Assembly (NCBI GenBank): GCA_002773395.1
Contig: PFBI01000006.1
Coordinates: 156,657-220,656 of the forward strand
Source: Candidatus Kaiserbacteria bacterium CG10_big_fil_rev_8_21_14_0_10_47_16
Lineage (GTDB): Bacteria > Patescibacteriota > Minisyncoccia > Phycocordibacterales > UBA918
Direction: 5' to 3'
DNA: 64,000 bases
Shown here piece by piece: positions 7,160-60,022 of this stretch. The notes under the pieces were generated by a model. The model did not search any database and was not told the origin of the DNA. It saw only the letters and a program-made list of their open reading frames with translations. Numbering within the stretch: the stretch's first letter is position 1; each line of letters starts with the position of its first letter. The position numbers and the translations under genes were made by a program.

Positions 7160-7504
7160 ATGCCCGATTTTGACCGACATGATCGTATCAATTCAATTCT
7201 CGCAACGCTTGCTGCTGAGTTTATTCGAGTTGAGGCAAACAGTAATCCTCTCATTACGGTAACCCACGTAACTATTTCTCCTGACTATCGCCGCACCACT
7301 ATTGGCTTCACGACCATTCCTGAAGATAAACAGGACGACGCCCTGATTTTTCTAAAGCGAAATGCATCTGAGTTCAGAAATTATATTAAAAAACACGCTC
7401 ACCTGAAGTTTATCCCCCACATTGAATTTGCGATTGATTACGGAGAACGCCACCGCCAACACATAGACGATGTGGTGAGAGATATTGAAGAGGGTAAAAA
7501 ATAA
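7160..7504 (+). CDS. rbfA: ribosome-binding factor A
   Basis: 114 aa immediately after infB (conserved infB-rbfA order); KH-like RbfA pattern (RINSILATLAAEF...VTHVTISPD). Confidence 0.8.
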   Translation: MPDFDRHDRINSILATLAAEFIRVEANSNPLITVTHVTISPDYRRTTIGFTTIPEDKQDDALIFLKRNASEFRNYIKKHAHLKFIPHIEFAIDYGERHRQHIDDVVRDIEEGKK

Positions 7505-7549
7505 TAATACAATCCTACGCCACAGGCGTAGGATTGTATTATTATTTTT
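7503..7549 (+). terminator. rho-independent terminator after rbfA
   Basis: Perfect long stem aatacaatcctacgcc/ggcgtaggattgtatt followed by a T-run. Confidence 0.7.
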
Positions 7550-15919: not shown

Positions 15920-18433
15920 TTAACTAATGACGGTCGTCGCAATCGCATCCCCTGGGCGCAATTTCATAATGCGTACTCCCTGTGTCTGACGGCCGAGTGA
16001 TGGCACATCTTTGAGTGGCAGTTTGATAACTTGCCCCTTCTTACTCATGACCACGAGCTCACCTTCTTTCTTGTCTTCATCACCGAGTACCGCAGCGCCC
16101 ACCACCTTACCGGTCTTTGTGGTGATTTTTGCTGTCTTAATACCTGAGCCACCACGCTTTTGTACCTTGTATTCTTTCGCTGGAGTCATCTTTCCGTATC
16201 CATTTTCCATGACGACGAGAATGTCGCGATCCTTCTCACCATTTTTCAGTACATCAGCAGAGACAATGATATCTCCTTTCTTGAGCTTCATCGCCGTTAC
16301 TCCTGCCGCTGTACGACCCATTTCACGTACATCACTTTCCTTAAATCGAATTGCTTGTCCTTCAGTAGAGATGAGTGACACTTCGTCACCCTTACCAACA
16401 AAGCGTGCAGAGATGAGCGCGTCGTCGTCTTTGAGCTTGATTGCAATAAGGCCGCTGCGACGAACATCCTTAAACGATGCTGCATCTGACTTCTTCGCAA
16501 CACCATTCTTTGTGACCATCATAAGACTCCAGTCGCCTGCCCACGCATCCTTTTTGACCGCGAGTACTGACGTCACATGCTCCTCGGGAGTAAGCGGAAG
16601 GAAGTTCATGATTGACTTACCTTTCGTTGCGCGCCGCCCTTCTGGAATTTCATACATCTTTGACTGATACACCTTACCCATATCAGTAAAGAAGAGGAGA
16701 TCACTGTGTGCTGATGTCGTGAGTAACATCGTTACTACGTCTTCTTCTTTAGTATTTAAATCAACAACACCAACGCCACCGCGCTTTTGTACCTTGTATT
16801 CACTTGGGTTTGTACGCTTTACGTATCCACCTTGTGTGAGAACGAGAACACTTTCATCATCAGGGACCAAGTCCTCTTGACTGAGCTGCTTCACGCCGCC
16901 TTTGATGATCTTTGTACGACGATCATCTCCGTATTTTTCTGCAGCTTCTGCAAGCTCTGTTTTCACAATACTTTGCATCTTCGCCTTGCTCTTCAAAATT
17001 CCTTCAAGTTCCTTAATGAGTGCCTGCACTTCTTTGAGTTCATCCTCGATCTTCTTACGTTCAAGGCCTGCGAGCTTTTGCAGACGCATATCAAGAATTG
17101 CCTGCGCTTGTCGCTCAGAGAATTTGAACTCCTTCATGAGCGCAGCGTGCGCAGAAGGGACATCTTTCGCTGCACGAATCAGCTTGATGATTGCATCAAT
17201 GTGGTCGAGCGCCTTCTTGAGTCCAAGGAGAATGTGTTCTCGGTCTTTTGCTTTTGCAAGATCGTACTCAGTACGACGACGGACAACCTCAACACGGTGC
17301 TTCACGTACTCTTCGAGAATACTCTTCAGTGACAATGTCTGCGGAATACCGTCAACAAGCGCCACCATGTTGTAGTGGAAGGTATCTTCAAGCTGTGTGT
17401 GCTTGTAGAGTTTGTTAAGTACTGTCTGTGGTTGTGCTGATGCCTTGAGTTCGATAACGACACGAATGTCAGACGTCGACTCATCACGCATTTCTTTAAT
17501 ACCTTCAATTTTTTTATCACGTACCAAACCTGCGATCTTTTCAAGCATGTCCGCCTTGTTTACGCGGAATGGAATAGAGGTAATGATAATAATAAAGTTG
17601 CCTTTCTTGTCTTCAGTAATTTCTGCTTCACCACGAACCACGACGCCACCCTTCCCGTTTGCGTAGGCGTGAGCGATATCTTTTTGATTGAATGCAACTG
17701 CGCCCATCGGAAAGTCTGGGCCTTTCACAAATTGCAGGAGGTCGTTTGTCGTCGCTGCTGGTGTATCGATAAGATGGGCAATAGCAGCTGCAATTTCTCG
17801 CAGGTTGTGTGGCGGGATATTCGTCGCCATACCTACCGCAATACCGAGTGTTCCATTGAGGAGGAGGTTTGGAAGTCCGGCAGGGAGTACCGACGGCTCT
17901 TTCTTCGTACCGTCAAAGTTTGGTCGCCACGCAACGGTATCTTTTTCAAGATCACGGAGCATTTCTTCTGCAACCTTCGACATCTTTGCTTCGGTGTAAC
18001 GATACGCAGCAGCACTATCTCCATCGATTGAGCCGAAGTTTCCTTGTCCGATGACGAGTGGGTATCGTGTATTAAATTGCTGCGCAAGTTTTACCATCGC
18101 TTCATACACAGAAATATCACCATGCGGGTGGAAACTACCGAGTACGTCTCCCACTACTGTTGCAGACTTTTTGAATCGGGCGGTGGACGTGAGTCCATTG
18201 AGACGCATCGAATAGAGAATGCGTCGATGTACTGGCTTAAGTCCATCGCGCACATCAGGAAGTGCGCGCGAGGTAATCACGCTCATTGCGTAGTCAAGGT
18301 ATGCGGCTTGCATCTCTCCCGTAATACTCTGTGCTTGCACACCGATAGCCGTACGGGTACCCATTTCTAATGCGGCATCACTGCCTTTTTTCTTTGGTTC
18401 GTTTTCAGAATTATCGTTCTTTTTTGCCGCCAT
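15920..18433 (-). CDS. gyrA: DNA gyrase subunit A
   Basis: 837 aa; N-terminal ...[34 protein letters not shown] (active-site Tyr region) and C-terminal beta-pinwheel repeats. Confidence 0.95.
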
Positions 18434-18494: not shown

Positions 18495-18899
18495 CTACTC
18501 CATCGTGCTTTTTGCGGAGCTCGTGCCGATGAGAACGACGTTGGCAGGAGCTGCTTTCGGAGTAGTTGTTGTTGCCGCATTAAAATTAAGTACGGGGACC
18601 AGTCCTTGGTCTTTTGTCGCACCACTCGGCGTAGGTTGCTCTGTGTTTTTACCCGACTCCGTTGACGAAGCGGCACCGAATGCTGCACCGAGTTGTGTGC
18701 GAACGTTGCCAAAAAATGAACTGAACGGCCCGACTGTTTCTTTTGCCGTCTCTGCAATCGGTGCGTTTTGTGTAAATTGTGATGGGAGCGTTGCAGTCCA
18801 CATAAGCGCAATAATACCGACAATCGCAAAGGCCGACCAAAATGAAATGTGGGCTTTCATTGTCGGTGACTGTGATTTTATTTTTTCGAGGAAGCTCAT
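18495..18899 (-). CDS. hypothetical small membrane-anchored protein
   Basis: 134 aa, one TM (FWSAFAIVGIIALMW), S/T/A-rich tail; no recognizable domain. Confidence 0.4.
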   Translation of the reverse strand: MSFLEKIKSQSPTMKAHISFWSAFAIVGIIALMWTATLPSQFTQNAPIAETAKETVGPFSSFFGNVRTQLGAAFGAASSTESGKNTEQPTPSGATKDQGLVPVLNFNAATTTTPKAAPANVVLIGTSSAKSTME

Positions 18900-19877: not shown

Positions 19878-20151
19878 TTGACAAAATGATTCATTGTAGT
19901 AGAGTAATGATGGTTTGCGCGCACAGGCCAAACAGCAGCGAAGCCGATCGGCAAAGTTCGTTTTAGAGCTTTATGGTTCACCACATCCCCTCCCTTGGTG
20001 GTAATCATACCTTTCATTGCGGAATCTCCCGCCTGTCGGACCCCCCTCCTGACAGAAAAGATGAGAGAGTGCCGGTCGGCCAGCCGCCGACCTTATCTGT
20101 ACGCAATTAAGTACGCCCCATGCCCGAGTATGCTTCATACTCGGCTTTTTT
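19878..20151 (+). ncRNA. candidate sRNA 1: promoter TTGACA-N16-TAGAGT through a rho-independent terminator
   Basis: -35 at 19878-83, -10 at 19900-05. Terminator ccgagtatg-ctt-catactcgg + TTTTTT at 20124-20151. Internal hairpins have C-rich loops containing CCUCC (caccacatcccctcccttggtgg; ctgtcggacccccctcctgacag). Confidence 0.35.
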
Positions 20152-20168
20152 ATTATCCACAGGCATTC

Positions 20169-20390
20169 TTGACGCTTGGTAAAGACAGGGGTAGACTACT
20201 TGTATTGGTCTTCATCGGGGAGTTATCCAATCGCGGAATCACACAGATTCCACAAAGGTCAGCTCCTTCAAAAAAACCAATCTCTGCAAAGCGCAGATTC
20301 GTTCTTTAGAAGCTTCGGCTTCCACCACATTTGAGACATTAGTCTCATTCCATCGTCCACAAACGCCTATCTCCGATACGGCGTTTTTTG
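20169..20390 (+). ncRNA. candidate sRNA 2: promoter TTGACG-N17-TAGACT through a terminator
   Basis: -35 at 20169-74, -10 at 20192-97. Terminator aacgcctatc-tcc-gatacggcgtt + TTTTTTGTTG at 20361-20390. Confidence 0.3.
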
Positions 20391-20418
20391 TTGTCAAAAC
20401 AGATGTTTTATAGTATTA
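20390..20418 (+). promoter_or_regulatory. sigma-70-type promoter of rpsA (TTGTCA-N17-TATTAT)
   Basis: -35 at 20390-95 overlaps the T-tract of the upstream terminator; -10 at 20413-18; about 120-nt 5' UTR. Confidence 0.5.
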
Positions 20419-20538
20419 TCTCGCCACCTGAAAAGGTTTATTAATTTCTAGCGGGGTGTGCTAACCCTGTCCTCACGAACACGGCCAGAGAAACGCTTGG
20501 ACAGAAACATACCGCCGGATACAAATACATAGTTTTAT

Positions 20539-21750
20539 ATGCCAGAAGAAAAAGCATCGGTCCTCGACCGCATTGTTTCTGCAGTAACCTCAAAGAATGA
20601 GAGTGACGCAGACGTAGCACCCGCTACACCAAAAGCATCTGAAGATGAAGAACCCGAAGATGCAGCAGACAAGAAGCTCAGTCTCATGCAAACATTGCTT
20701 GTAGACAGCCCGACACCTCCAAAGGAAGGTGACATTATTGAAGGTACCGTATCAGCAATTGGTCGCGCTCGTGTATACATCGACTTGCCACCATTTGGTA
20801 CTGGTCTCTTGTACGGACGTGAATTCATGAACGCTCGAGATATCCTCCGTAAGGTAGGTATCGGTGATAGTATCGCAGCGAAAGTTGTTGATGCTGGAAA
20901 CGAAGATGGCTACATTGAGCTTTCACTCAAGGAAGCTCGACAAGCACTCATCTGGAGTGATGCTGAAGCAGGTGCAAAGAATCAGACTGTCATGAGTCTT
21001 GAGGTCAAAGAAGCAAACAAGGGTGGTCTCATCCTTGATTGGCAAGGTATCCAAGGATTCCTCCCAGCGTCACAGCTTGCAGCTGAACACTACCCACGTG
21101 TTGAAGACGGTGATAAGGATAAAATCCTTTACGAACTTCAAAATCTCGTTGGTCAATTCCTTTCAGTAATTATCATTACTGCGGATCAGAAAGAAGGTAA
21201 GCTCATCTTCTCTGAAAAGGGGCCACAAGAAAAAGAAGAGAAGGAAGAGAAAGTACGAAACTACGAAGTTGGTGATACGCTCTCAGGAGAGATCACTGGT
21301 GTTGTAGACTTCGGTGTCTTCGTCAAGCTTGAGGAAGGACTTGAAGGTCTCGTACACATCTCAGAACTCGACTGGGGACTCGTTGAAGATACTCGCAGTA
21401 TGTACAAGGTTGGTGATCGCGTACAGGTGAAAGTGATTGAAGTAAAGGATGACAAGATTTCTCTCTCAATCAAACAGCTCCGCGAGAACCCTTGGGTATC
21501 TGCAGGAAACAAATACAAGAAAGAACAGGAAGTACAGGGTGTTATCATCAAGTACAACAAGCACGGTGCGCTCGCATCTATCGAGGAAGGTGTTGCTGGT
21601 CTCGTACACATCTCAGAATTTGAGAGTGAAGAAGATCTTAAGAACAAGCTTTCACTCGGACAGAGCTATCCGTTTACCATTACACTCTTTGAACCAAAGG
21701 AACAGCGTATGACGCTTTCGTTTAAGAAAGAGGAGGAAGTGAAGAAGTAA
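20539..21750 (+). CDS. rpsA: 30S ribosomal protein S1 (short, 4 S1 domains)
   Basis: Repeated S1 domains (GEITGVVDFGVFVKLEEGLEGLVHISELDW..., GVIIKYNKHGALASIEEGVAGLVHISEF). Confidence 0.85.
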   Translation: MPEEKASVLDRIVSAVTSKNESDADVAPATPKASEDEEPEDAADKKLSLMQTLLVDSPTPPKEGDIIEGTVSAIGRARVYIDLPPFGTGLLYGREFMNARDILRKVGIGDSIAAKVVDAGNEDGYIELSLKEARQALIWSDAEAGAKNQTVMSLEVKEANKGGLILDWQGIQGFLPASQLAAEHYPRVEDGDKDKILYELQNLVGQFLSVIIITADQKEGKLIFSEKGPQEKEEKEEKVRNYEVGDTLSGEITGVVDFGVFVKLEEGLEGLVHISELDWGLVEDTRSMYKVGDRVQVKVIEVKDDKISLSIKQLRENPWVSAGNKYKKEQEVQGVIIKYNKHGALASIEEGVAGLVHISEFESEEDLKNKLSLGQSYPFTITLFEPKEQRMTLSFKKEEEVKK

Positions 21751-21767
21751 GGTACAGGAGAATACAA

Positions 21768-21797
21768 AAAGCCCCGCGCCTTTGGCGCGGGGCTTTT
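21768..21797. terminator. bidirectional terminator between rpsA and pth
   Basis: aaaagccccgcgcc-tttg-gcgcggggcttttt. Confidence 0.7.
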
Positions 21798-21804
21798 TGT
21801 ATTC

Positions 21805-22383
21805 CTACGCGTTATACGCATTCATCGTTTTTGCAACACCCTCTTCCACAATCATCTTGAGCGCCGCAACCATGTCTGGCATGCGTGCCTCTAATCTCGA
21901 GCGTTCTCGCTTCGTGAAGTCCTTTAACACAAAATCAGCAATACGATCCCCTTTTGGTCGATGCGCGTTCCCAAAGAGTGAAACGGGGCAAATACCAACT
22001 CGCAGTCTGATGAATTCCTGTGAACCCAGTGAACGAACAACTGACTCAACACCATTATGTCCCCCACTTCCACGCCCAACACTTACCTTAAATGCGCCAA
22101 TGGGAATATCGAGATCATCGTGTACCACAATAATACTATCTGCGTCAGATACTGCCTTTTTTACCGATGCGCCACTCGCATTCATAAAAGTATTCGGAAG
22201 AAGTACTCGAACGTTCGTACCTGAGAGAGTCCCCTCGGACATATCCGCGACGAGCGCGCTCGAAGGCACAAAGTTTGGGAGACCGACAGTTTCCACAAAA
22301 CTGGCTACGACGAGCGCACCAGCATTGTGTCGTGTGTTTGCGTACGGAGGAGTAGGGTTTCGAAGTCCAACAATTGTGTACAT
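21805..22383 (-). CDS. pth: peptidyl-tRNA hydrolase
   Basis: MYTIVGLRNPTPPYANTRHNAG (Pth N-terminal signature with catalytic His); start at M11 of the track ORF. Confidence 0.85.
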   Translation of the reverse strand: MYTIVGLRNPTPPYANTRHNAGALVVASFVETVGLPNFVPSSALVADMSEGTLSGTNVRVLLPNTFMNASGASVKKAVSDADSIIVVHDDLDIPIGAFKVSVGRGSGGHNGVESVVRSLGSQEFIRLRVGICPVSLFGNAHRPKGDRIADFVLKDFTKRERSRLEARMPDMVAALKMIVEEGVAKTMNAYNA

Positions 22384-22417
22384 ATGTGTACTTGTATTGT
22401 ACACGATTTGCATAAAC

Positions 22418-22446
22418 TTGCTCCTATCAGAGCAAGCGACTATAAT
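22418..22446 (+). promoter_or_regulatory. promoter of lepB (TTGCTC-N17-TATAAT), nearly leaderless
   Basis: -35 at 22418-23, -10 at 22441-46, ATG at 22462. Confidence 0.45.
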
Positions 22447-22461
22447 GGTCTACATTCAACT

Positions 22462-23106
22462 ATGGAACAGCCACTACACAGTACCGTTGAAGCAAAAGAC
22501 AGTGCTGTTACCCCTGTATCCAGTCCCCTATCACCTAAAGAAAAGAAAGAACCGTCATTTCTCGGCGAATTCTTTCGTTTCTCTCTTATTGCAATCATCA
22601 TTGTGGTACCCATCCGTTTCTTTGTTGCACAACCATTTATTGTTTCTGGCGCATCAATGGAAAACACGTTTGAAACCGGCGAATACCTCATCGTTGATCA
22701 AGTGACCTACAAGCTCTCTGAGCCAAGTCGCGGTGACGTCATTGTATTTCACTACCCGAAAGATCCTTCAAAGTTCTACATCAAGCGTGTTATTGGTCTT
22801 CCGGGCGACACCGTATCTATAGTCGATGCGCAGGTAACCATCACGAACACCGAACACCCTGAAGGAGTGGTTCTCGATGAACCATACATCAAGCATATGT
22901 CCCCCGCAGCACCCTCATCAGTCACACTCGGTACCGACGAATACTTCGTTATGGGTGACAATCGCGACAAGAGTTCTGACTCCCGCATATGGGGAGTGCT
23001 CACACGTGAGGGCATTGTCGGTCGCGCATACCTCAGACTCTTCCCGATCACAAACGCTGCATACCTCCCCGGAACATACGATATCAATAGCGAAGTTAAT
23101 CAATAA
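22462..23106 (+). CDS. lepB: signal peptidase I
   Basis: Catalytic Ser box GASMENTF, ...GDVIVFHYP..., YFVMGDNRDKSSDSRIWG (Lys box). Confidence 0.8.
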   Translation: MEQPLHSTVEAKDSAVTPVSSPLSPKEKKEPSFLGEFFRFSLIAIIIVVPIRFFVAQPFIVSGASMENTFETGEYLIVDQVTYKLSEPSRGDVIVFHYPKDPSKFYIKRVIGLPGDTVSIVDAQVTITNTEHPEGVVLDEPYIKHMSPAAPSSVTLGTDEYFVMGDNRDKSSDSRIWGVLTREGIVGRAYLRLFPITNAAYLPGTYDINSEVNQ

Positions 23107-23110
23107 ATCT

Positions 23111-24277
23111 ATGTCACTCATTTCTTCAGTTGATTTTCTCAAGCACGGCGTAAACACGATTAGACATTTTGGATTTAAATCAGTCGATGAACTCAAAAAC
23201 GACCCGCTCTGCAGAGAATGTAAAAAAAGAGTTGATGACAAAACATCCGCTGTCGACAAACGTGTAGACGGTCTTCATGGCATGCTCACGGGCGGCGCTG
23301 CAACATACTTCGGCAGTCGATTGAATGCAATTGAAGGACCAGTACTTTTCTATACAACAGAAACCGTTCCGCGCACCGGAGACGCTGCCCTCTCTCTCCA
23401 CATATTTGGTGTAGAAAAGAGCATCGCTGAAGCGCTCCTTATTCAAACAATGCGCGCACTCGCAAATGAAAGCGGTTTCCCGAACCACAGTGTCCGCATC
23501 AATTCCCTTGGAGACGATGACTCCGTAGCGCGCTACACGCGTGAACTCACAAACTATCTTCGAAAGCGTGCCGACGTATTGCCTCCTGCTGCGCGTGAAC
23601 TCATGAAGGAACATGCATTCTCAGCACTCATGCACCTTATCGAACGTGATGACGAACTCGCACGCAAGAGTCCAAACTCTCTTGAGTATCTCAGTGACCC
23701 AAGTCGAAAACATTTTCGCGAGATTATCGAATACCTCGATATGAGTCAAACCCCATACGAAATTGATTCATCACTCATCGGACACCACCAGTGTTACTCA
23801 GATGCACTCTTTGCATTTGACCTCTTTGATGAAGAATCAAACAAACTCAAAGAACAACCACTCTACATCCGCGGTGGCCGATACGGCACCTTTGTAAAAC
23901 GAATGAGCGGACTCACGGTACCCGCAGTATCTGCAGTCGCAGTCCTTCGTGATAAGAAAGCTCCGACCCACCTTCCGAAGATGAAGATACCTACACCATC
24001 AGTCTTTGTGGTACAGCTTGGCTTTGGACCAAAAATAAAAAGTCTCCTTCTCATCAACGAACTCCGTGAAGCAGGTATTCCAGTATTCCAAAATCTCACC
24101 AGCGACTCACTTTCAGGACAACTCCTTGAAGCTGCAGAACGCAATACACGCTTTGCACTCATTGTCGGACAGAAAGAATTTATTGACGACAGTGTTATAC
24201 TGCGAGATCTCCACGCACAATCACAAGAAAGCGTCCCTATCAGTGGCATCGTACGGCGTCTCCAGCGCGTTCTCTAG
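23111..24277 (+). CDS. histidyl-tRNA synthetase-like class II aaRS paralog with degenerate motif 2 and intact anticodon-binding-like domain (HisZ-like)
   Basis: Matches the HisRS mid/C-terminal regions: HIFGVEKSIAEALLIQT...INSLG, NSLEYLSDPSRK (resembling LNPLRILDSK), RGGRYGTF (resembling GGRYD) and a C-terminal alpha/beta anticodon-binding fold (VFVVQLGFG...ALIVGQKEF). Where the motif-2 arginines (FRYERPQ.GRYRQF) should be, the sequence reads LFYTTETVPRTGDAALSL. Confidence 0.5.
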   Translation: MSLISSVDFLKHGVNTIRHFGFKSVDELKNDPLCRECKKRVDDKTSAVDKRVDGLHGMLTGGAATYFGSRLNAIEGPVLFYTTETVPRTGDAALSLHIFGVEKSIAEALLIQTMRALANESGFPNHSVRINSLGDDDSVARYTRELTNYLRKRADVLPPAARELMKEHAFSALMHLIERDDELARKSPNSLEYLSDPSRKHFREIIEYLDMSQTPYEIDSSLIGHHQCYSDALFAFDLFDEESNKLKEQPLYIRGGRYGTFVKRMSGLTVPAVSAVAVLRDKKAPTHLPKMKIPTPSVFVVQLGFGPKIKSLLLINELREAGIPVFQNLTSDSLSGQLLEAAERNTRFALIVGQKEFIDDSVILRDLHAQSQESVPISGIVRRLQRVL

Positions 24278-24348
24278 AGAGAAAAGCCTCGTGATATACT
24301 AAAAACAAGGGTGGGTTATCACCTTTTATACATAGTTATATTTATAGT

Positions 24349-24759
24349 ATGAACAAGTTTTTTCAGCATATGCTTTGGGATACACACGCACTTCTCGTTG
24401 CACGTGTACTCATGGGAGGTATGTTTTTGCTCGCAGGTATCGATAAACTACAAAACATCGACGGCATCGCCCTCATGATTGCGGGCGCAGGTCTTCCTGC
24501 TGCCGGTCTCCTTGCATGGCTTTCAGGGATTTTTGAAGTACTTGCAGGAGCAGCAATTATCGTTGGGTATCACTTCCGCGAAGCTGCTGTGCTTCTCGCC
24601 CTCTTCACATTGGTGGTAGCGTTTCTCTTTCATACCCCAACCTCATGGACAGAGAGTCCAATCCAGAAAGTATTCTTTATGAAAGACATGGCGATCTTTG
24701 CAGGTCTCCTCTTTATGGCCGCACACGGATCAGGAAATACGTGGAAGGTACGAAAGTAA
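24349..24759 (+). CDS. DoxX-family membrane protein
   Basis: 136 aa, 4 TM; hydrophobicity pattern and size resemble DoxX; no diagnostic motif identified. Confidence 0.55.
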   Translation: MNKFFQHMLWDTHALLVARVLMGGMFLLAGIDKLQNIDGIALMIAGAGLPAAGLLAWLSGIFEVLAGAAIIVGYHFREAAVLLALFTLVVAFLFHTPTSWTESPIQKVFFMKDMAIFAGLLFMAAHGSGNTWKVRK

Positions 24760-24774
24760 CCGATATGTATATAA

Positions 24775-24806
24775 AAGGCCGAGAGCGAAGCTCTCGGCCT
24801 TTTATA
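24775..24806. terminator. bidirectional terminator (doxX / fba convergent)
   Basis: aaaaggccgagagc-gaag-ctctcggcctttt. Confidence 0.7.
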
Positions 24807-24819
24807 ATACGTTTCTATA

Positions 24820-25839
24820 TTATCCTTTGTCTTCTGATGCGTTGTACTTTCCTTGTTGTGCGAGACTGTTCATTTTTGTGCGATAGAGCAATGCTTGTTG
24901 TGCTTTCTCGATGTTTCCATCTTTTCCCTGCCATGCGGTCAAGACCGGTTCCTCAAGTGCGCGAGAAAACGATGACGAGATTGGCCATGGCTGCTTCCCC
25001 ATTTTTGCAATCGCATGTAAATTTTCGGTTGCACGTTTTGGTGCCTGCCCACCGGACAGAAATACGATACCCCCGACGTCATGCGGAACCCCGAGCCGTA
25101 GTGTGCGGAGCGTACTATCAGCAACCTCTTCTGGTGTAGACGGTGTCTTGTACATATCTCCCGCAAGTACCATCGATGTTTTGAGAATAAGACCTTTGAA
25201 GTCAACACGGTACATACGAAGTTTCGTAAACAATATTTGTAGCGCACGTGTTGTTACTTCTTCGGCACGTTGTAGGGAATGGTTGCCTGCAAAGATAACT
25301 TCCGGCTCAACCATTGGAACAATACCTGCAGCCTGCGCGAGCGCAGCATAGCGTGCAAGCATGATTGCGTTTATCTCCAAACACTCGTCCGATGGGAGTG
25401 TGTCTCCGTCGATAGTAATGACCGCCCGCCACTTGGCAAACCGTGCACCGAGCGTGTAATACTCCTTAAATCGGTCGGCGAGACCATCGAGTCCTTCGGT
25501 CACCACTTCTCCATCAAATCCTTCAAGTGGTACCGTGCCGGTATCAACCTTTATTCCTGGAATAATACCGCGAGCGGCAAGTACGTCAGCAAACGGCACT
25601 CCACCTTTTGTTTCTCCTCGTATGGTTGAGTCGTATAAAATAACACCCGAGAGATACTCCTCAATGCCTGGTGCAGTAAAAAGGAGTTCACGAAACGCAC
25701 GACGATGTTCAATTTCATTTGGAAGATGGACCATTTCGAGTCGCTTTCCTGCAGTCCCATCACTCTCATCTGCAGCAAGAATTCCCTTACCGCTCTCCAT
25801 CATCTGTGCAACAATTTTATAAAGATCGTTTTGATTCAT
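24820..25839 (-). CDS. fba: class I fructose-bisphosphate aldolase
   Basis: 339 aa; ...GKGILAADESDGTAGKRL... (class I FBA N-terminal signature). Confidence 0.8.
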   Translation of the reverse strand: MNQNDLYKIVAQMMESGKGILAADESDGTAGKRLEMVHLPNEIEHRRAFRELLFTAPGIEEYLSGVILYDSTIRGETKGGVPFADVLAARGIIPGIKVDTGTVPLEGFDGEVVTEGLDGLADRFKEYYTLGARFAKWRAVITIDGDTLPSDECLEINAIMLARYAALAQAAGIVPMVEPEVIFAGNHSLQRAEEVTTRALQILFTKLRMYRVDFKGLILKTSMVLAGDMYKTPSTPEEVADSTLRTLRLGVPHDVGGIVFLSGGQAPKRATENLHAIAKMGKQPWPISSSFSRALEEPVLTAWQGKDGNIEKAQQALLYRTKMNSLAQQGKYNASEDKG

Positions 25840-25869
25840 ACAAAAATAATATCATGCTTACTGCACTCG

Positions 25870-26607
25870 CTACGCGCGGATTTTCCACCCGATCTTAAAG
25901 AGGTATGTCACGAGTGCTGCGAGACCTACAAGCAGACCCCCAATAACGAGTAGTCCAACCCCCGGATTTGCTTCACTCACACCAATCATTGAACTACGGA
26001 TACCATCCACAAAATAGAAGAACGGATTGATGTGTGTCAGAAGCTGTGCAGATTGCGGAAGCATCGTCACTGAATAGAAGATACCGCCGAGATACGTAAA
26101 CGGGGTGATGATAAAGGTATTGAGAATAGTAAGTTGTTCAAAGCCGTCTGCCCACAATGCCACCAACATACCAAGCAGTGAAAAGATTCCAGAAACGGCA
26201 ATCACGTACAGTACAAATCCAATAGGATTAACGAGCGTCACTGCGCCGAAGAAGAGTCCGACAACGAGAATAAGGAACGCAACAATAAGTGCTCGAAGGA
26301 CTGCACCGAACATATATCCAAAAATCATTTCCACATACGAGAACGGTGCGAGAAGAATTTCTTCAATACCTTTTACAAAGCGTGCGAAGTAAAGTGATGA
26401 AGAACTACTCGAGAATGACGCATTGATAATACTGAGCATCAAAATACCCGGAAACACGAACGTGATGTACGGAACCCCTACAATATTTTCAATACGTGAA
26501 CCAACCACAAACCCGAAGATGAATATGTATAGTGTCGCCGAAATAACCGGTGCGAGTACCGTCTGTACAACAACGCGCATCGTTCGTTCAACTTCACGTC
26601 GTACCAT
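25870..26607 (-). CDS. ABC-2 family transporter permease
   Basis: 6 TM segments. Start taken at MVRREVERTM (ATG 26605-07), because the longer ORF N-terminus overlaps a 17-bp inverted-repeat element. Confidence 0.65.
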   Translation of the reverse strand: MVRREVERTMRVVVQTVLAPVISATLYIFIFGFVVGSRIENIVGVPYITFVFPGILMLSIINASFSSSSSSLYFARFVKGIEEILLAPFSYVEMIFGYMFGAVLRALIVAFLILVVGLFFGAVTLVNPIGFVLYVIAVSGIFSLLGMLVALWADGFEQLTILNTFIITPFTYLGGIFYSVTMLPQSAQLLTHINPFFYFVDGIRSSMIGVSEANPGVGLLVIGGLLVGLAALVTYLFKIGWKIRA

Positions 26608-26629
26608 CGTATAGACTCCTATCCAGTTT

Positions 26630-26728
26630 ACCCCGTTAGAAATTATTGAGCGGTTTCTTTTGTTTTCAATATTTTGTGTGTTGTTCATACTTATGTACAT
26701 TGACGCTTTTGATAATTTCTAACGGGGT
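26630..26728. repeat. MITE-like element: perfect 17-bp terminal inverted repeats (accccgttagaaattat / ataatttctaacggggt) enclosing 65 nt, between the ABC ATPase and permease genes
   Basis: Arms at 26630-26646 and 26712-26728 are exact reverse complements. The arms resemble those of the element at 59900-60022. Confidence 0.45.
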
Positions 26729-26741
26729 TAATTCCCATACG

Positions 26742-27485
26742 CTAAAATGTTTCTCCTTTAGTAATTTCTAAATACCGTTGTTCAAGCGACTTTCCACCTG
26801 CAATAAACTCATTTTTTGTCCCTTCTGCAATAATCTTTCCATTGTTAATGATAGCAATGTCATTACAAAGCATCTCAATCTCTTCAAGATAGTGTGACGT
26901 CAAAATGATAGTCTTGCCTCGCTGCTCATTGAGCTCACGGAGATACGCCCAGAGTTCATGACGCTGCTCTACATCCACTCCTGCCGTTGGTTCATCAAGG
27001 ATAAGGAGATCTGGCGCATGCACGAGTCCGCGCGCAAGCATGACACGACGCTTCAATCCTCCTGAGAGGTGCTGAAACTTTTTGTTGCGGTGTGCTTCTA
27101 AATCAAAGCGTGCAATGAGTTCATCAATGCGAGATTGCCGTTCACGCTTCGGCATACCGTAGTAGCCACCAACATAATCGAGGAGCTGATCAGGTGTTGA
27201 GAAGATATCTACATTGAACTCCTGTGGTGAGAGACCGACTTTTTTACGGGCAGTCTTGTACTCTTTCACTACATCAGTACCATCAATCATAATTGAACCG
27301 CTTGTTATCTTTGCAATTCCGGTAATGCAGTGAATCGTACTTGATTTCCCTGCACCATTTGGACCAAGTAAACCAAAAAATGCACCCCGTGGGATACGGA
27401 GTGAAAGGTCTGCGACCGCGGTCTTATCGCCATACTTCTTTACAAGGTGATCGATCACCAAAATATCATCTGTTGCCTTTTGCAT
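26742..27485 (-). CDS. ABC transporter ATP-binding protein
   Basis: Walker A GPNGAGKSST, signature LSGGLKRR, Walker B LLILDEP. Confidence 0.85.
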   Translation of the reverse strand: MQKATDDILVIDHLVKKYGDKTAVADLSLRIPRGAFFGLLGPNGAGKSSTIHCITGIAKITSGSIMIDGTDVVKEYKTARKKVGLSPQEFNVDIFSTPDQLLDYVGGYYGMPKRERQSRIDELIARFDLEAHRNKKFQHLSGGLKRRVMLARGLVHAPDLLILDEPTAGVDVEQRHELWAYLRELNEQRGKTIILTSHYLEEIEMLCNDIAIINNGKIIAEGTKNEFIAGGKSLEQRYLEITKGETF

Positions 27486-27509
27486 GGCTATAGCATAGCA
27501 TGGCGATGC

Positions 27510-31022: not shown

Positions 31023-31367
31023 CCGGGCTCGGTCACGAATCACTAAGTATATTTTTGCTACGCTAAAATATACTTAGTGTTCTCGACCCGTGAAAAGCAA
31101 TTCAATATTGCTTTTCACCACGCCTCCCTCGTCCACAGGACGCGGCGCTCCGGCTTTCGAGCCGAGGCTCGGCGTCTAACTCTAGTTCACTACGTTCACA
31201 AGAGTTACCTGCCCGAGCATTTGAATTCTTGCATTAGAAATAGCAAAAATATACAAATGCTTTTCGAGCCCGACCGTAGGACGCGCCTGCGTCCTACTCC
31301 CCAAGCACACATACACAAAAACCGCCCTGAGGCGGTTTTTGTGTATGTGTGCTTGGGGCCGGGCTCG
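31023..31367. repeat. ~307-bp insert next to tRNA-Phe, flanked by an exact 19-nt direct repeat of the tRNA 3' end (gtgcttggggccgggctcg at 31023-31041 and 31349-31367)
   Basis: The direct repeat is visible in the sequence. The interior is hairpin-dense and includes a 28-bp perfect palindrome at 31299-31358 that incorporates the tRNA acceptor end. Confidence 0.5.
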
Positions 31368-42627: not shown

Positions 42628-43371
42628 ATGACAGAAGAAGGAAAAGGGCGCCTTGTCACAGGGCTTACCATACTTGGCTTTATAGCGGTGCTGGCACTGT
42701 GTGTTTTTGCTGCAGTTAAGCTCGTTCAACTTACTCCTAACATCTTCTCTTCCCTTGCGAACGTAACCGTCGGTACACAGGATGAATCCGACAGTACAGT
42801 AGCTACTACCGACACCACTAACGGTCCCTCTACCGTTACTATTATTCGGAATCCTGCGACAAGTACGCCCCCAACAGTAACTCCTGCAACAAGCACGCCG
42901 CAGCAACGACCGCCAGTTACACCACCGACGACACCGCAGCAACCTCCTGTGACGCCACAGCCACAACCCGAAACCTATACATACAATTACACATATCTTC
43001 CAACGTCAGATCCAAACGGGTACACCGACCTCGTCGCGCGTGTATACGCAACAGGGTACGTGCGTAATCACACCTTCGTTGAAAGTCCGTACGTTGATAC
43101 GAATGATACCGCCGCGGTGCAGATATCAGTGAAAAATACGGGTACCAAAACATCTGACCGTTTCGATGTTGATATCACACTTCCAACCGGCGATGACTTC
43201 TCGCTTGATAACCAGGCAGGTATTCAGCCAAATGAAGAAGTGATCATCACCTTCTCGTTTGATCCACGAAGCCTCTCAGGTACCCGATCATTTGATGGAC
43301 GAGTCTCTGTATCGAACGATGTAAATGTTTCAAGCAACTCATTCTACGGAACCGTACAATTTCGAAACTAA
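42628..43371 (+). CDS. hypothetical secreted protein with Pro/Thr-rich linker
   Basis: Signal anchor, then TSTPPTVTPATSTPQQRPPVTPPTTPQQPPVTPQPQP, then about 130-aa beta-rich domain. Confidence 0.45.
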   Translation: MTEEGKGRLVTGLTILGFIAVLALCVFAAVKLVQLTPNIFSSLANVTVGTQDESDSTVATTDTTNGPSTVTIIRNPATSTPPTVTPATSTPQQRPPVTPPTTPQQPPVTPQPQPETYTYNYTYLPTSDPNGYTDLVARVYATGYVRNHTFVESPYVDTNDTAAVQISVKNTGTKTSDRFDVDITLPTGDDFSLDNQAGIQPNEEVIITFSFDPRSLSGTRSFDGRVSVSNDVNVSSNSFYGTVQFRN

Positions 43372-43376
43372 ATAAG

Positions 43377-43412
43377 AAAAGCCCCGCGGCAGAGCCGCGG
43401 GGCTTTTCTTAT
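43377..43412. terminator. bidirectional terminator (convergent with gyrB)
   Basis: aaaagccccgcggc-agag-ccgcggggctttt. Confidence 0.7.
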
Positions 43413-43424
43413 TTAAAAACAGTT

Positions 43425-57133: not shown

Positions 57134-59821
57134 TTACACTGCCACCTTACTCTTTGAATCCTTTTTCTTTAGACTCTTTCGATCTCCTTTCTTCTTTATA
57201 TCGAAGTCTACTTCACCCTTCTTCATTGAGACTGAAACACTTCCCCCTTGGAGCATTCCTTCTCCAACCATCATTGAAGCAACAGGAGTGAGGATCTTTG
57301 ACTGAATCACACGCTTGAGTGGACGCGCACCAAACTTTGGATCGTATCCTTCCTTGGCGATGTAATCGAGCACATCGCGCGTGACGGTAAGTTTAATATC
57401 TTTGTTGTGTAGACGCTTCTGAATGATTTCAATCTGCATCTCAACAATACTGCGAATCGTTTCTGGACTGAGGAGATCAAAGACAATGATCTCATCGAGA
57501 CGGTTGAGGAACTCTGGTCGGAAGTAGGTCTTGAGACTTTCAAGCACCTTGCCTTTCGCCTGTCCATATTGTTCGCCCTCATCGCTGTTTGAGAATCCAA
57601 ACTTCGACATACGGTCAATGTGCTCTGCGCCGATGTTTGAAGTCATGATGACAACTGTGTTTTTGAAGTTTACGCGGCGACCCTTTGCGTCAGTTAAATG
57701 TCCTGAATCAAGTACCTGCAAGAGAATGTTAAAGACTTCAGGGTGCGCCTTTTCAATTTCGTCAAAGAGAATGACTGAGTACGGTCGGTGTCGTACAATT
57801 TCTGTTATCACTCCGCCCTCCTCATGACCAACGTACCCTGGAGGTGATCCAATGATTTTAGACACAGAGTGCTTCTCCATGTACTCACTCATGTCGATCC
57901 GGATGAGTGCTTTCTCATCATCAAACATAAACTCAGCAAGTGCACGTGAAAGCTCTGTCTTCCCCACACCTGTTGGACCAAGGAAAAGGAATGAACCAAT
58001 CGGACGGTTCGGGTCTGCAATACCTGCTCGTGAGCGCTTCACGGCGTCTGCAACAAGCTTTACGGCGTGACCTTGTCCCACAACACGCTTCGTGAGTTCT
58101 TCTTCCATACGAGAGAGTTTCTTCGCTTCTTCTTCGAGCATGCGGGCTACCGGTACACCTGTCCAACGTGATACGACGAGCGCGATGTCTTCTTCAGTCA
58201 CCTCTTCTTTAAGAAGACGACGTGTACGATGGAGCTTCTTCATACGCGCAATCTTATCTTCGAGTTCTTTCTCAAGTTTTGGAATGCGATCGTATCGAAT
58301 TTCTGCAGCACGCGTAAGATCGGCAATTGCTTCTGCCTGCTCTGCTTCAACACGAAGTTCCTCAAGTGTCTTTTTCATTTCACGAATCTCGTTGAGTACG
58401 TCGCGTTCGTTATTCCACTTTGTTTCAAGCGCTTTGGTCATTTCACGAAGTTCACCAATTTCCTTATCGATTTCTCGAAGTCGCTTCCGGAGTTGTGTTT
58501 TCTTTTCAGTGATTTCTTCTTCTTTCTTAAGTGCTTCCTTTTCAATTTCAAGACGACGAACCTTACGATCAGAGACCACAAGTTCCTCTGGCTTATTCTC
58601 AAGTGAGATACGGAGTGCTGATCCAGCTTCATCAATAAGGTCAACTGCCTTGTCAGGAAGGAATCGGTCGGTGATATAGCGTGCAGATAGATTTACCGCT
58701 GCCACAATAGCGTCGTCAGTAATACGGACGCCGTGGAAGAGCTCATACTTCTCCGCAACACCTCGCATAATCGCGATTGCATCTTCGATAGATGGTTCAT
58801 TTACATGGACAGGTTGGAAACGACGGGTAAGTGCTGGGTCTCGTTCAATATATTTTTGATATTCCTTCAGTGTTGTCGCGCCAATAACACGAAGCTCACC
58901 ACGCGCGAGCGCTGGCTTCAGCATGTTTGATGCGTCCATTGTTCCTTCCGCCTGCCCTGCACCGACAATAGTGTGGAGCTCGTCGATAAAGAGAATTACA
59001 TGTCCAGCAGACTGTTCCACTTCTTTCATCACTGCCTTGAGGCGCTCTTCAAATTCTCCGCGGAACTTTGTTCCTGCAACGAGGAGTCCGAGATCGAGTG
59101 AAAGAATTTCTTTATCCTTCACTGATTCTGGAACGTTGCCCTGTACGATTGAAAGTGCGAGACCTTCTGCAATAGCAGTCTTCCCGACACCCGCTTCACC
59201 GATGAGTACGGGGTTGTTCTTCGTTCGGCGAGAGAGAATCTGTACGACGCGTTGGATTTCAACATCACGCCCAATGACGGGGTCGAGTTTATTTTCTTGT
59301 GCAAGCTTTGTGAGGTTGCGTGAGTATTTGCCGAGTGCACGGTATTTCTTCGGTTGTGTTGCATCGTCAATACCACCTTCACGAATTTCAGTGAGTGCGT
59401 TTTCAACCTGCTTCTTATTTACACCCGATTGCTCGAGCGCTTCGATAGCGGGACCTGGGTACTCGAGGAGTGCGAGGAAGAGGTGTTCAACCCCAACGTA
59501 TGCATCATGGAATCCTTCCGCAATGCGGCCTGATTTCTCAATGGCGCTCGCAAGGTCTGGTGTGAGATAGAGTTGGTATGATTGTGAAATAGCACCTCCC
59601 ATCTCTGGACCATCAAGTGCTTCGAGGAGCAGGTCGGTGAGAGCGATGACGTCGATGTCGAGTCGGTCCAAAATAGCAATAACGGTGTTCTCTTCCTGCA
59701 TCACCAAAGCAGCCAACAGGTGGGTTGGACTGACGTGATTTTGACCGCGTTCAATAGCGATTTCATGGGCTTTTCGGATTGCCTCTTTCGCGCGGGATGT
59801 GAAGTTGTTGAAATTTGGCAT
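57134..59821 (-). CDS. clpB: ATP-dependent chaperone ClpB
   Basis: 895 aa, two AAA+ modules (GEAGVGKT..., GPTGVGKT...), long coiled-coil M-domain. Confidence 0.95.
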
Positions 59822-59899
59822 AACTACAAATAGAAGCTAATAACTCCATGATGCAACAGAATGGCGAGTGAGTCAACTTTTAGATTTGCTCAACTCCCT

Positions 59900-60022
59900 C
59901 TAATTCTCTAAACGAGATGAGATGCGCGGCGTCGACGAACGAAGCTTCGAGGCGTACTTTGTCGTACGACGAGAAACTTCGTGAGGAAGACAACAAAGCA
60001 GGTCGCTCGTTTAGAGAATTAG
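59900..60022. repeat. MITE-like element: perfect 17-bp terminal inverted repeats (ctaattctctaaacgag / ctcgtttagagaattag) enclosing 89 nt, in the leuS-clpB spacer, overlapping the leuS stop codon
   Basis: Arms at 59900-59916 and 60006-60022 are exact reverse complements; the leuS stop TAA lies at 60011-60013. Confidence 0.45.

Follow-up and report, generated by a model that had tools for sequence, protein, structure and literature searches.

Correia elements (CREE) are non-coding Neisseria elements of ~100-150 bp with terminal inverted repeats and a short target duplication, which form hairpins in mRNA and can carry outward promoters. Rickettsia palindromic elements (RPE) are short selfish palindromes that lie in frame within protein-coding genes and are tolerated there as an extra peptide. 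The repetitive extragenic palindromes and bacterial interspersed mosaic elements (REP/BIME) with RAYT (Y1), as well as the palindrome-associated transposable elements (PATEs) of IS200/IS605, are abundant palindromic repeats tied to a small repeat-flanked nuclease or transposase gene. Here, we analyzed an inverted repeat at positions 26630-26728 of a 64,000-nucleotide stretch of contig PFBI01000006.1 of a Candidatus Kaiserbacteria bacterium; this whole stretch is referred to below as the window. The repeat lies between the ATPase and permease genes of an ABC transporter operon and proved to be an inserted element. The closest described system is Ssn/NTS. The Ssn proteins are single-domain GIY-YIG nucleases of ~94 aa (CDD cd10448), which cut only single-stranded DNA, at the hairpin repeats named NTS or SRM (Chenal et al. 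2025, PMC11893778). These repeats flank the Ssn gene and occur in hundreds of copies, and the authors liken this layout to an insertion sequence (IS); the SRM motif is HGTCWYN(0-2)YYVSBRHN(0-5)WNVSBRGN(0-2)RNCYNB (PMC11893778). For NTS/SsnA in Neisseria, a role in modulating DNA uptake or recombination was proposed, and repeats of the REP/RAYT type are discussed in the same paper (PMC11893778).

The window contains ACCCCGTTAGAAATTAT at 26630-26646 and its exact reverse complement at 26712-26728 (17/17 bp, 65-nt spacer), exactly the perfect terminal inverted repeats that the initial annotation had described. The pairing of the arms stretches to 20 nt at 95% (26627-26646 with 26712-26731, one mismatch). 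Seven overlapping 17-mers with a perfect inverted partner at a spacer of 20-300 nt were observed, against none in 20 shuffles of the window. The element itself is 97 bp long (CCCC...GGGG, 26631-26727) and has 34% G+C vs 47% in the window. On the minus strand, which encodes both flanking genes, it begins with the ATPase-side arm CCCCGTTAGAAATTAT (26712-26727), continues with a 65-nt interior of 32% G+C (26647-26711) and ends with the gene-proximal arm ATAATTTCTAACGGGG (26631-26646), which in frame reads I-I-S-N-G. The interior carries the stop codon of a short upstream open reading frame (uORF), a replacement ATG and a promoter-like match. The only reading frames in the element are this 15-codon remnant and the leader of the permease, and no transposase gene is present.

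The ATPase gene (26742-27485, minus strand, PF00005) lies upstream of the element, and the ABC-2 permease gene, as now called, encodes 272 aa (25870-26688, minus strand; identical to the database protein P0001 and to the gene calls in L001). At NCBI, proteins with 100% identity to this permease and to the leucyl-tRNA synthetase of the window bear the name 'Candidatus Parcubacteria bacterium', in line with a CPR/Patescibacteria genome. In three relatives, whose permeases are 84, 80, and 79% identical (P0003/L008, P0004/L006, and P0005/L007, respectively), the ATPase stop is followed by the permease ATG after 1 nt. The alignment with these loci showed that the window has ~100 extra nt just past the start codon of the relatives. 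The minus-strand junction reads ...TAG CGT ATG GGA A|TTAA|CCCCGTTAGAAATTAT-65 nt-ATAATTTCTAACGGGG|TAAA|C TGG ATA GGA GTC... When 26631-26727 and one copy of the target-site duplication (TSD) are deleted, the sequence becomes ATG GGA ATA AAC TGG ATA GGA GTC TAT ACG ATG, and the reconstructed permease start is MGINWIGVYTM, compared with MNGINWIGVYTM, MDINWIGIYTM, and MNVNWIGIYTM in the relatives. The target TAAA is intact and single at the homologous position in L006, L007, and L008. The permease-side copy of the duplication, TAAA (26627-26630, minus strand), was read directly, and the ATPase-side copy, TTAA (26728-26731, minus strand), is supported by the reconstruction of the empty site and differs from TAAA by one substitution, so that three of four positions match.

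These data show that the feature is an insertion of a 97-bp element plus a 4-bp duplication, 101 bp in all, into permease codons 3-4. The apparent intergenic gap is therefore an artefact: the initial annotation had placed the element correctly, but no gap pre-existed, since the element interrupts what used to be the 5' end of the permease gene. The flanks, which had been called inconclusive, turned out to hold the 4-bp duplication, and the proposed comparison with relatives found the element absent from all three. Five contigs from other samples with the same ATPase have a junction identical base for base. The window copy is probably a neutral, lone insertion that split the ABC operon, and the element itself probably has no host function.

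The same arms recur far beyond this operon. Exact 17-mer scans found at least 119 stretches in public metagenome contigs and at least 120 in a collection of one genome per GTDB species; the family counts given here and below (180 distinct elements, 178 with flanks, 239 loci) refer to the matches listed in both scans. Most arm matches have an inverted partner, ATTTCTAACGGGG, with 0-2 mismatches 14-100 nt downstream, and the genes around the arm pairs are unrelated from match to match. After duplicates were collapsed, at least 180 distinct paired elements of 29-320 bp remained, which share an identical 13-17-nt arm, have size modes near 47, 79, and 100 bp, and enclose interiors varying from 14 nt to 290 nt. 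Identical 4-bp flanks were seen in 97 of the 178 elements, whereas the permutation mean was 16.7 and the maximum 31 (1000 trials). As the number of identical flanks drops to 12 at 5 bp and to 0 at 6 bp, we conclude that the duplication is exactly 4 bp. Its consensus is T-N-N-A, and the two copies are repeated directly rather than prolonging the palindrome. The analysis thus shows that the arms (A)CCCCGTTAGAAAT(TAT), together with a T-N-N-A duplication of 4 bp, define a family of very large size. The class first proposed for the element, that of a miniature inverted-repeat transposable element (MITE), is borne out by the empty site in three relatives, the 4-bp duplication and the arm stretches in the two collections; instead of two copies conserved in position, we found recurring arms and empty relatives. 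The length of 97 bp also falls below the upper bound of about 600 bp for a MITE. The window element is very probably an inserted miniature, that is, a 97-bp non-autonomous member of this arm-defined family.

According to the database records, the hosts are mostly Patescibacteria (Nealson-, Portnoy-, Uhr-, Moran-, Kerfeld-, Zambryski-, Giovannoni-, Doudna-, Levyi-, and Saccharibacteria, as well as Ca. Paceibacter). The others are Omnitrophota, including the complete genome of Ca. Velamenicoccus archaeovorus, Ignavibacteria, Elusimicrobia, NPL-UPA2, Planctomycetota (Pirellulales, Brocadiaceae, and Scalinduaceae), metagenome-assembled genomes (MAGs) labelled Gammaproteobacteria, and one isolate, Fodinibius salsisoli. 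Some genomes hold multiple copies, such as four in 8 kb of L013 and copies on six contigs of one Ignavibacteria MAG. A minority of single-arm matches lie within ordinary coding sequence, for example in Buttiauxella and Bacteroides, and look like chance matches. In viral contigs, each arm sequence had two matches, which we also ascribe to chance because all of them are inside coding sequence and have no partner arm. No description of this arm and nuclease family was found in open-access papers or in bioRxiv full text.

A solo arm-like sequence, TTAATTTCTAGCGGGGT, is present at 20441-20457 of the window, with one mismatch to the 13-nt arm core (minus-strand match 20444-20456). It is situated in the 5' leader of the gene for ribosomal protein S1, downstream of a promoter-like TTGTCA-17-TAGTAT site, and has no partner arm. 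About 0.08 matches of this kind are expected by chance in the window, and the site could be a relic of a decayed element.

The long members of the family carry a gene. Among the matches listed, all arm pairs 270-320 bp apart (members of 277-320 bp) enclose one open reading frame (ORF) for a GIY-YIG protein of ~85 aa, and GIY-YIG is the only cargo between arm pairs more than 200 bp apart in the 239 arm-selected loci. Such nuclease-bearing units were found in L025, L090, and L094 (277 bp, TSD TCTA), in L150 and L179 (284 bp), in L201 (294 bp), and in L035 and L128 (320 bp, TSD TGGA), where the unit lies inside the YMDD motif of a reverse transcriptase gene; partial units are present in L163 and L198. 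The nuclease ORF begins with an ATG immediately next to the left arm on its inner side (AAATT-ATG) and ends with the TAA contained in the right arm (TTTC-TAA-CGGGG). The 85-aa protein consists of a single GIY-YIG domain (PF01541, E = 6e-16), and its nearest solved relatives are the UPF0213 proteins BH0048 and EF2693 (1zg2, E = 1e-8), followed by SLX1.

A search starting from the protein returned 2579 homologues at E <= 1e-5, almost all of 83-100 aa and mostly on very short contigs of less than 3 kb. When the context of four homologues was examined, exact or co-varying arms were present in three (L249, L252, and L266). Exact arms flank P0166 (L249, Patescibacteria), and its unit lies with the duplication ATGA at the start codon of a PMT_2 gene. 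The arms around P0172 (L252, Planctomycetes) are CCCCGTTAGAGAT/ATCTCTAACGGGG, and those around P0134 (L266) are CCCCGTGAGATAT/ATATCTCACGGGG. The fourth, P0181 (L258), has no flanking arms, only a 32-bp mini-hairpin upstream. A fourth arm variant, TCCCGTTAGAGAA/TTCTCTAACGGGA, was seen in L058 with the duplication TGAA. In the arm variants TTAGAAAT, TTAGAGAT, TGAGATAT, and TCCCGTTAGAGAA, both sides change together, and they change with the nuclease lineage. The arms are also visible in the proteins themselves. Of the 120 closest homologues, 25 end in -LTG, 24 in -F (KNF or ENF) and ~15 in -NL, and these endings are the right arm translated in each of its three frames; C-termini encoded by the arm are found in at least 60 of the 120, where either the arm or the duplication provides the stop codon. 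In several proteins of this set, an over-called N-terminus reads ...TPLEIM, which is the left arm. The association of the nuclease with the arms is shown by these observations.

Some loci with nuclease genes have further peculiarities. In L058 (1150-1520; also in L140), the nuclease gene between the variant arms (TCCCGTTAGAGAA, TSD TGAA) is interrupted by a 46-bp mini-element with canonical arms and the duplication TGGG, and another right arm lies immediately upstream. The nuclease ORF at 12500-12820 of L035 (also in L128) has an in-frame TGA, which points either to a pseudogene or to a host that reads TGA as sense (code 25 lineages). At 1330-1640 of L025 and 3040-3400 of L090, a distant small GIY-YIG gene (51% identity) has an inverted repeat of another sequence, ACCCGGTAGTACAAC/GTTGTACTACCGGGT, on its two sides, which suggests that other nuclease lineages have arm sequences of their own. 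The family arms are missing from the more distant GIY-YIG genes (<= 51% identity) that the same loci contain.

The positions of the copies relative to genes are not uniform. An ATG occupies positions -5 to -3 in 47 of the 178 elements, about a quarter, vs 3-7 at neighbouring offsets, and these insertions follow the pattern A|TGAA, in which an AAx codon comes after the start codon. In 76 orientation-instances, the right arm was in the frame ATT-TCT-AAC-GGG (ISNG) and led into an ORF of 80 codons or more, compared with 20 for the second frame and none for the third, which contains TAA. An in-frame internal ATG was present in 27 of 33 start-codon insertions, but in only 6 of 33 reverse-complement controls and 26 of 212 non-genic copies. 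The replacement leaders include MARKTTKISNGV, fused to leucyl-tRNA synthetase (LeuRS), and MIKKNKKISNGV, fused to methionyl-tRNA synthetase. The ORF that starts at the old ATG usually terminates within the element, at a median distance of ~6 nt upstream of the replacement ATG. The window copy shares this layout of an old ATG followed by an in-frame replacement ATG. Judging from these sequence patterns, the replacement ATGs may reflect either element design or survivorship.

Other copies are situated at promoters and at tRNA genes. At loci with the duplication TTGA (such as L063, L077, L079, L046, L170, and L154), a -35 box of the form TTGAC(A) is the site of many copies of ~45-50 bp. There the left arm serves as a spacer of 16-17 nt in front of a TAnnAT hexamer within the element, and the original promoter is preserved by the duplicated TTGAC; such copies could create tandem promoters. 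At loci with the duplication TGGA (such as L052, L098, and L225), several copies of ~100 bp abut tRNA 3' ends, where TGGA is followed by the complement of the tRNA acceptor and T-arm.

The remnant of the original permease start can still be recognized in the window. The old ATG at 26738 sits 3 nt past the ATPase stop and opens a 15-codon ORF, MGINPVRNYQKRQCT (26691-26738, minus strand), which spans the ATPase-side arm and ends with the TAA at 26693-26691. Its first four codons (MGIN) match the ancestral N-terminus of the relatives. The replacement ATG at 26688 lies 2 nt past this stop in the permease frame, and the element-derived leader MNNTQNIENKRNRSIISNG is fused in frame to the native VNWIGVYTMVRRE..., giving the 272-aa protein of the database. 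Ribosomes may still initiate at the old ATG (26738), translate the 15 codons through the ATPase-side arm, terminate at 26693-26691 and restart 2 nt further on at the element-borne ATG (26688). Since the uORF crosses the ATPase-side arm, the translating ribosomes should melt the 17-20-bp stem. As drawn from the sequence, this restart model of permease expression has, in our estimate, an even chance of being right. A second route, alternative or additional, would be translation from the conserved Met11. The ATG at 26607 is preceded at a distance of 8 nt by GGAG (26619-26616; the whole start site spans 26605-26619, minus strand), which arose by a synonymous change of GGT to GGA at the Gly8 codon (window ATAGGAGTC vs ATCGGTGTC and ATTGGTATC in relatives); the three insertion-free relatives carry GGTG or GGTA at this place. 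Many permease homologues are annotated as 245 aa, beginning at Met11, and an internal start there is a plausible route to the permease. It should be noted that the GGAG may have arisen after the insertion as a compensatory Shine-Dalgarno sequence. The strong mRNA hairpin and a possible outward promoter would be side effects of the insertion.

How the family moves can be proposed from its composition. Whether the miniature copies are mobilised in trans by the 85-aa GIY-YIG nuclease is a question on which we are evenly divided. Staggered cleavage by the nuclease at T-N-N-A, followed by host repair, would possibly yield the duplication. A wider reading, which we put forward only tentatively and regard as somewhat less probable than not, joins three parts. 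The arm-GIY-YIG-arm units (277-320 bp, one 85-aa protein) would be autonomous through their nuclease, in place of a transposase or recombinase, and make 4-bp T-N-N-A duplications; they would move between phyla among co-resident groundwater and sediment bacteria and give rise to miniature derivatives, the window copy included; and the miniatures would be adapted to start codons, to which they bring a replacement start codon and a leader peptide.

A number of observations weigh against this proposal or against the place of the window copy in it. The 64-kb window holds one complete copy and one solo arm-like site (20444-20456, one mismatch), and no family copy was found in ~67 kb from relatives. 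The duplication around the window copy has one mismatch, and no empty site was found within the same species, as all six sequences of the population are identical. When the 65-nt interior was compared with 92 orientation-instances of similar-sized elements, its score was no better than that of shuffled interiors; because the interior resembles no other copy, the membership of the window element rests on its arms, duplication and size. The interval between the uORF stop and the new ATG ranges from -34 to +47 nt across the family, and strict translational coupling is therefore no family rule. A sigma-70-like match inside the element, TTGAAA-16-AATAAT (26642-26669, minus strand), is directed toward the permease and agrees with 10 of 12 consensus positions, but it is a consensus match only and not significant by itself. 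One such site was found against 1.8 expected in shuffles, and since this does not exceed the expectation, an internal promoter was set aside and is not relied on here. The window contains no GIY-YIG gene, and tblastn of two element-borne nucleases against it gave noise (E >= 0.1). No GIY-YIG-bearing unit was seen at two loci, as P0134 and P0172 (24 contigs each) were always at a single locus. We know of no strand-transfer activity of a single 85-aa GIY-YIG domain, so the protein could be a passenger, or a partner that has been domesticated, and not the enzyme that mobilises the elements.

Two of the other explanations are serious rivals. The first is a domesticated system like that of Ssn, in which the arms would be the sites of a host-serving GIY-YIG nuclease acting on single-stranded DNA and would have spread by recombination or selection, not by transposition. 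The layout of repeat, nuclease and repeat and the small single-domain GIY-YIG protein are as in Ssn (PMC11893778), and the arms keep their exact sequence from phylum to phylum while the interiors drift. We nevertheless consider this unlikely. The precise 4-bp direct duplications around 97 of the 178 listed copies and the clean empty site in relatives are signatures of insertion and not of motif drift. In addition, copies lie inside essential genes, including start codons, the YMDD motif of the reverse transcriptase and the nuclease gene of another copy. The published SRM motif matches none of the 180 listed elements, and the window has no nuclease gene.

The second, mobilisation by a conventional transposase (DDE or other) recognizing the same ends, would make the element an ordinary MITE and the GIY-YIG gene a recurrent passenger. 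Known bacterial MITEs derive from IS elements, and a 4-bp duplication fits several IS families; the nuclease homologue in L258, which has no flanking arms, also agrees with this explanation. It is rendered improbable by the fact that, in the 239 listed loci, GIY-YIG is the only cargo wherever the paired arms stand more than 200 bp apart. Moreover, the ORF adjoins the left arm with its start, and its stop codon falls within the right arm or the duplication, for most of the 120 nearest homologues, and the arms co-vary with the nuclease lineage. No convincing longer unit with matching ends was found within 2.5 kb in the metagenome loci or within 450 bp in the genome loci.

A structured RNA acting in cis, such as an intra-operon attenuator or a processing or stability hairpin that sets the ratio of ATPase to permease, had been named as the alternative in the initial annotation. 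Stabiliser hairpins do occur between two cistrons, as this element does, and the stem predicted in the polycistronic transcript is strong (-36.0 kcal/mol on the transcript strand vs -21.6 +/- 3.1 for shuffles, z = -4.6). The element is, however, absent from the three relatives, in which the genes are 1 nt apart; the same arms occur beside unrelated genes in other phyla, and the interior is not conserved. In Rfam, no match overlapping the element at 26600-26750 was found when the whole window was searched at the gathering threshold, nor did any match overlap this or the second inverted repeat of the window when 20000-27500 and 59600-60300 were searched at E <= 5. Such an RNA is thus very improbable. 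Least probable of all is a switch in which a recombinase flips a promoter between the inverted repeats. The repeats do flank the permease-directed sigma-70-like match, but this match is not above chance, no recombinase gene is nearby, six independent assemblies have the identical sequence in one orientation, and the family-wide duplications and interiors of 14 nt to 290 nt are unlike those of an inverton.

The second inverted repeat of the window (59899-59916 and 60006-60023) is a perfect 18-nt repeat with an 89-nt spacer. As its interior is self-complementary too, the whole of 59899-60023 forms a near-perfect 125-nt hairpin (-57.8 kcal/mol, z = -5.7), which is located directly past the LeuRS stop and ~75 nt before the ClpB start and is not followed by a T-run. 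The initial annotation had taken this element (59900-60022) for kin of the first one. Its arm is indeed closer to the arm of the first element than a random 18-mer (p ~0.002), but the shared core CGTT(T)AGA(G)AATTA runs from outer to inner in the first element and from inner to outer in the second. The flanks TCCC/TTTA hold no duplication, and most of the LeuRS-side arm is native coding sequence, namely the final LeuRS codons AAT CTA ATT CTC TAA (NLIL-stop); the LeuRS of relatives ends in ...ILNLII, ...ILNLMI, or ...ILNLVV. With its core inside out, no duplication and an arm overlapping native codons, 59899-60023 was rejected as a family member, and the proposed kinship was abandoned. No further copy of it was found in 1.8 Mb of related loci, and two relatives have a different gene downstream of LeuRS. 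The repeat may have arisen when the end of the gene was duplicated in inverted orientation, or it may be a palindromic element of another kind.

Another pair of sequences, 18357-18380 and 18570-18593 (I8), is only 79% complementary and has one arm in gyrA coding sequence; the pair was treated as chance. Many perfect palindromes of 15-28 bp with 3-4-nt loops and A/T-rich shoulders were seen, for example at 31299-31358, 7497-7549, 43369-43415, and 21760-21804. They lie between convergent or tandem genes and resemble bidirectional intrinsic terminators, and the longest overlaps the 3' end of tRNA-Phe. The LeuRS of the window has 784 aa and is without a NUDIX domain, while about half of its closest homologues (P0242, P0244, P0251, and others) have ~940 aa and an extra NUDIX domain (PF00293).

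For the window alone, the consequence of the insertion is modest, namely a split ABC transporter operon whose permease would be made from a new or internal start. The wider interest lies in the family that the window copy revealed. If the nuclease does move the units, they would represent a new route of DNA mobility and the smallest self-contained mobile element, and would link Ssn systems to transposition. The family distorts the annotation of genomes of the Candidate Phyla Radiation (CPR) and other uncultured bacteria by creating false intergenic gaps, split operons and N-terminal extensions (M..K..KISNGV, and ..TPLEIM on the nuclease), and it probably also causes assembly breaks. That the arms agree base for base between Patescibacteria, Omnitrophota, Planctomycetota, Ignavibacteria, and other hosts is a sign of gene flow between largely uncultured lineages that occur together. 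Meanwhile, the insertions that rebuild a start codon provide natural test cases of translation restart in unculturable organisms.

In comparison with the known systems, the family resembles IS-derived MITEs in its small size, terminal inverted repeats, duplication, lack of a transposase gene and presence or absence between relatives. It differs from them in that the interiors are not conserved and the one full-length partner to be found measures 277-320 bp and encodes an 85-aa nuclease; to our knowledge, the smallest IS are about 700 bp and up. REP/RAYT and IS200/IS605 repeats depend on HUH/Y1 proteins and make no target duplication, whereas here a GIY-YIG protein and a 4-bp duplication are found. 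As in RPE, the arms are read as peptides fused to native proteins (...ISNGV or ...TPLEI), but there is no sequence relationship, and the present family is concentrated at start codons, brings its own ATG, has a clear duplication and occurs in several phyla. With Correia elements, it shares the form of a small non-coding element with terminal inverted repeats and a short duplication, next to or inside genes. The Correia ends and their TA duplication are, however, unrelated to CCCCGTTAGAAAT and T-N-N-A, those elements are confined to one genus, and we know of no nuclease partner for them.

The Ssn repeats are self-contained hairpins of ~30 bp (of the type ATTCCC-N8-GGGAAT), in contrast to the 13-17-bp arms around a variable interior described here. 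The single match of the SRM motif in the whole window lies elsewhere than at the element, and none falls in the 180 listed elements. Neither a 4-bp target duplication nor insertion into genes, both seen here, has been reported for NTS, and the hosts of the present family are mainly CPR bacteria, which are unmentioned in the Ssn paper (PMC11893778). What the two systems have in common is a small gene (~85-94 aa) for a single-domain GIY-YIG protein with the repeat on both sides, as is seen here in L025, L035, L150, L179, L201, L249, L252, and L266.

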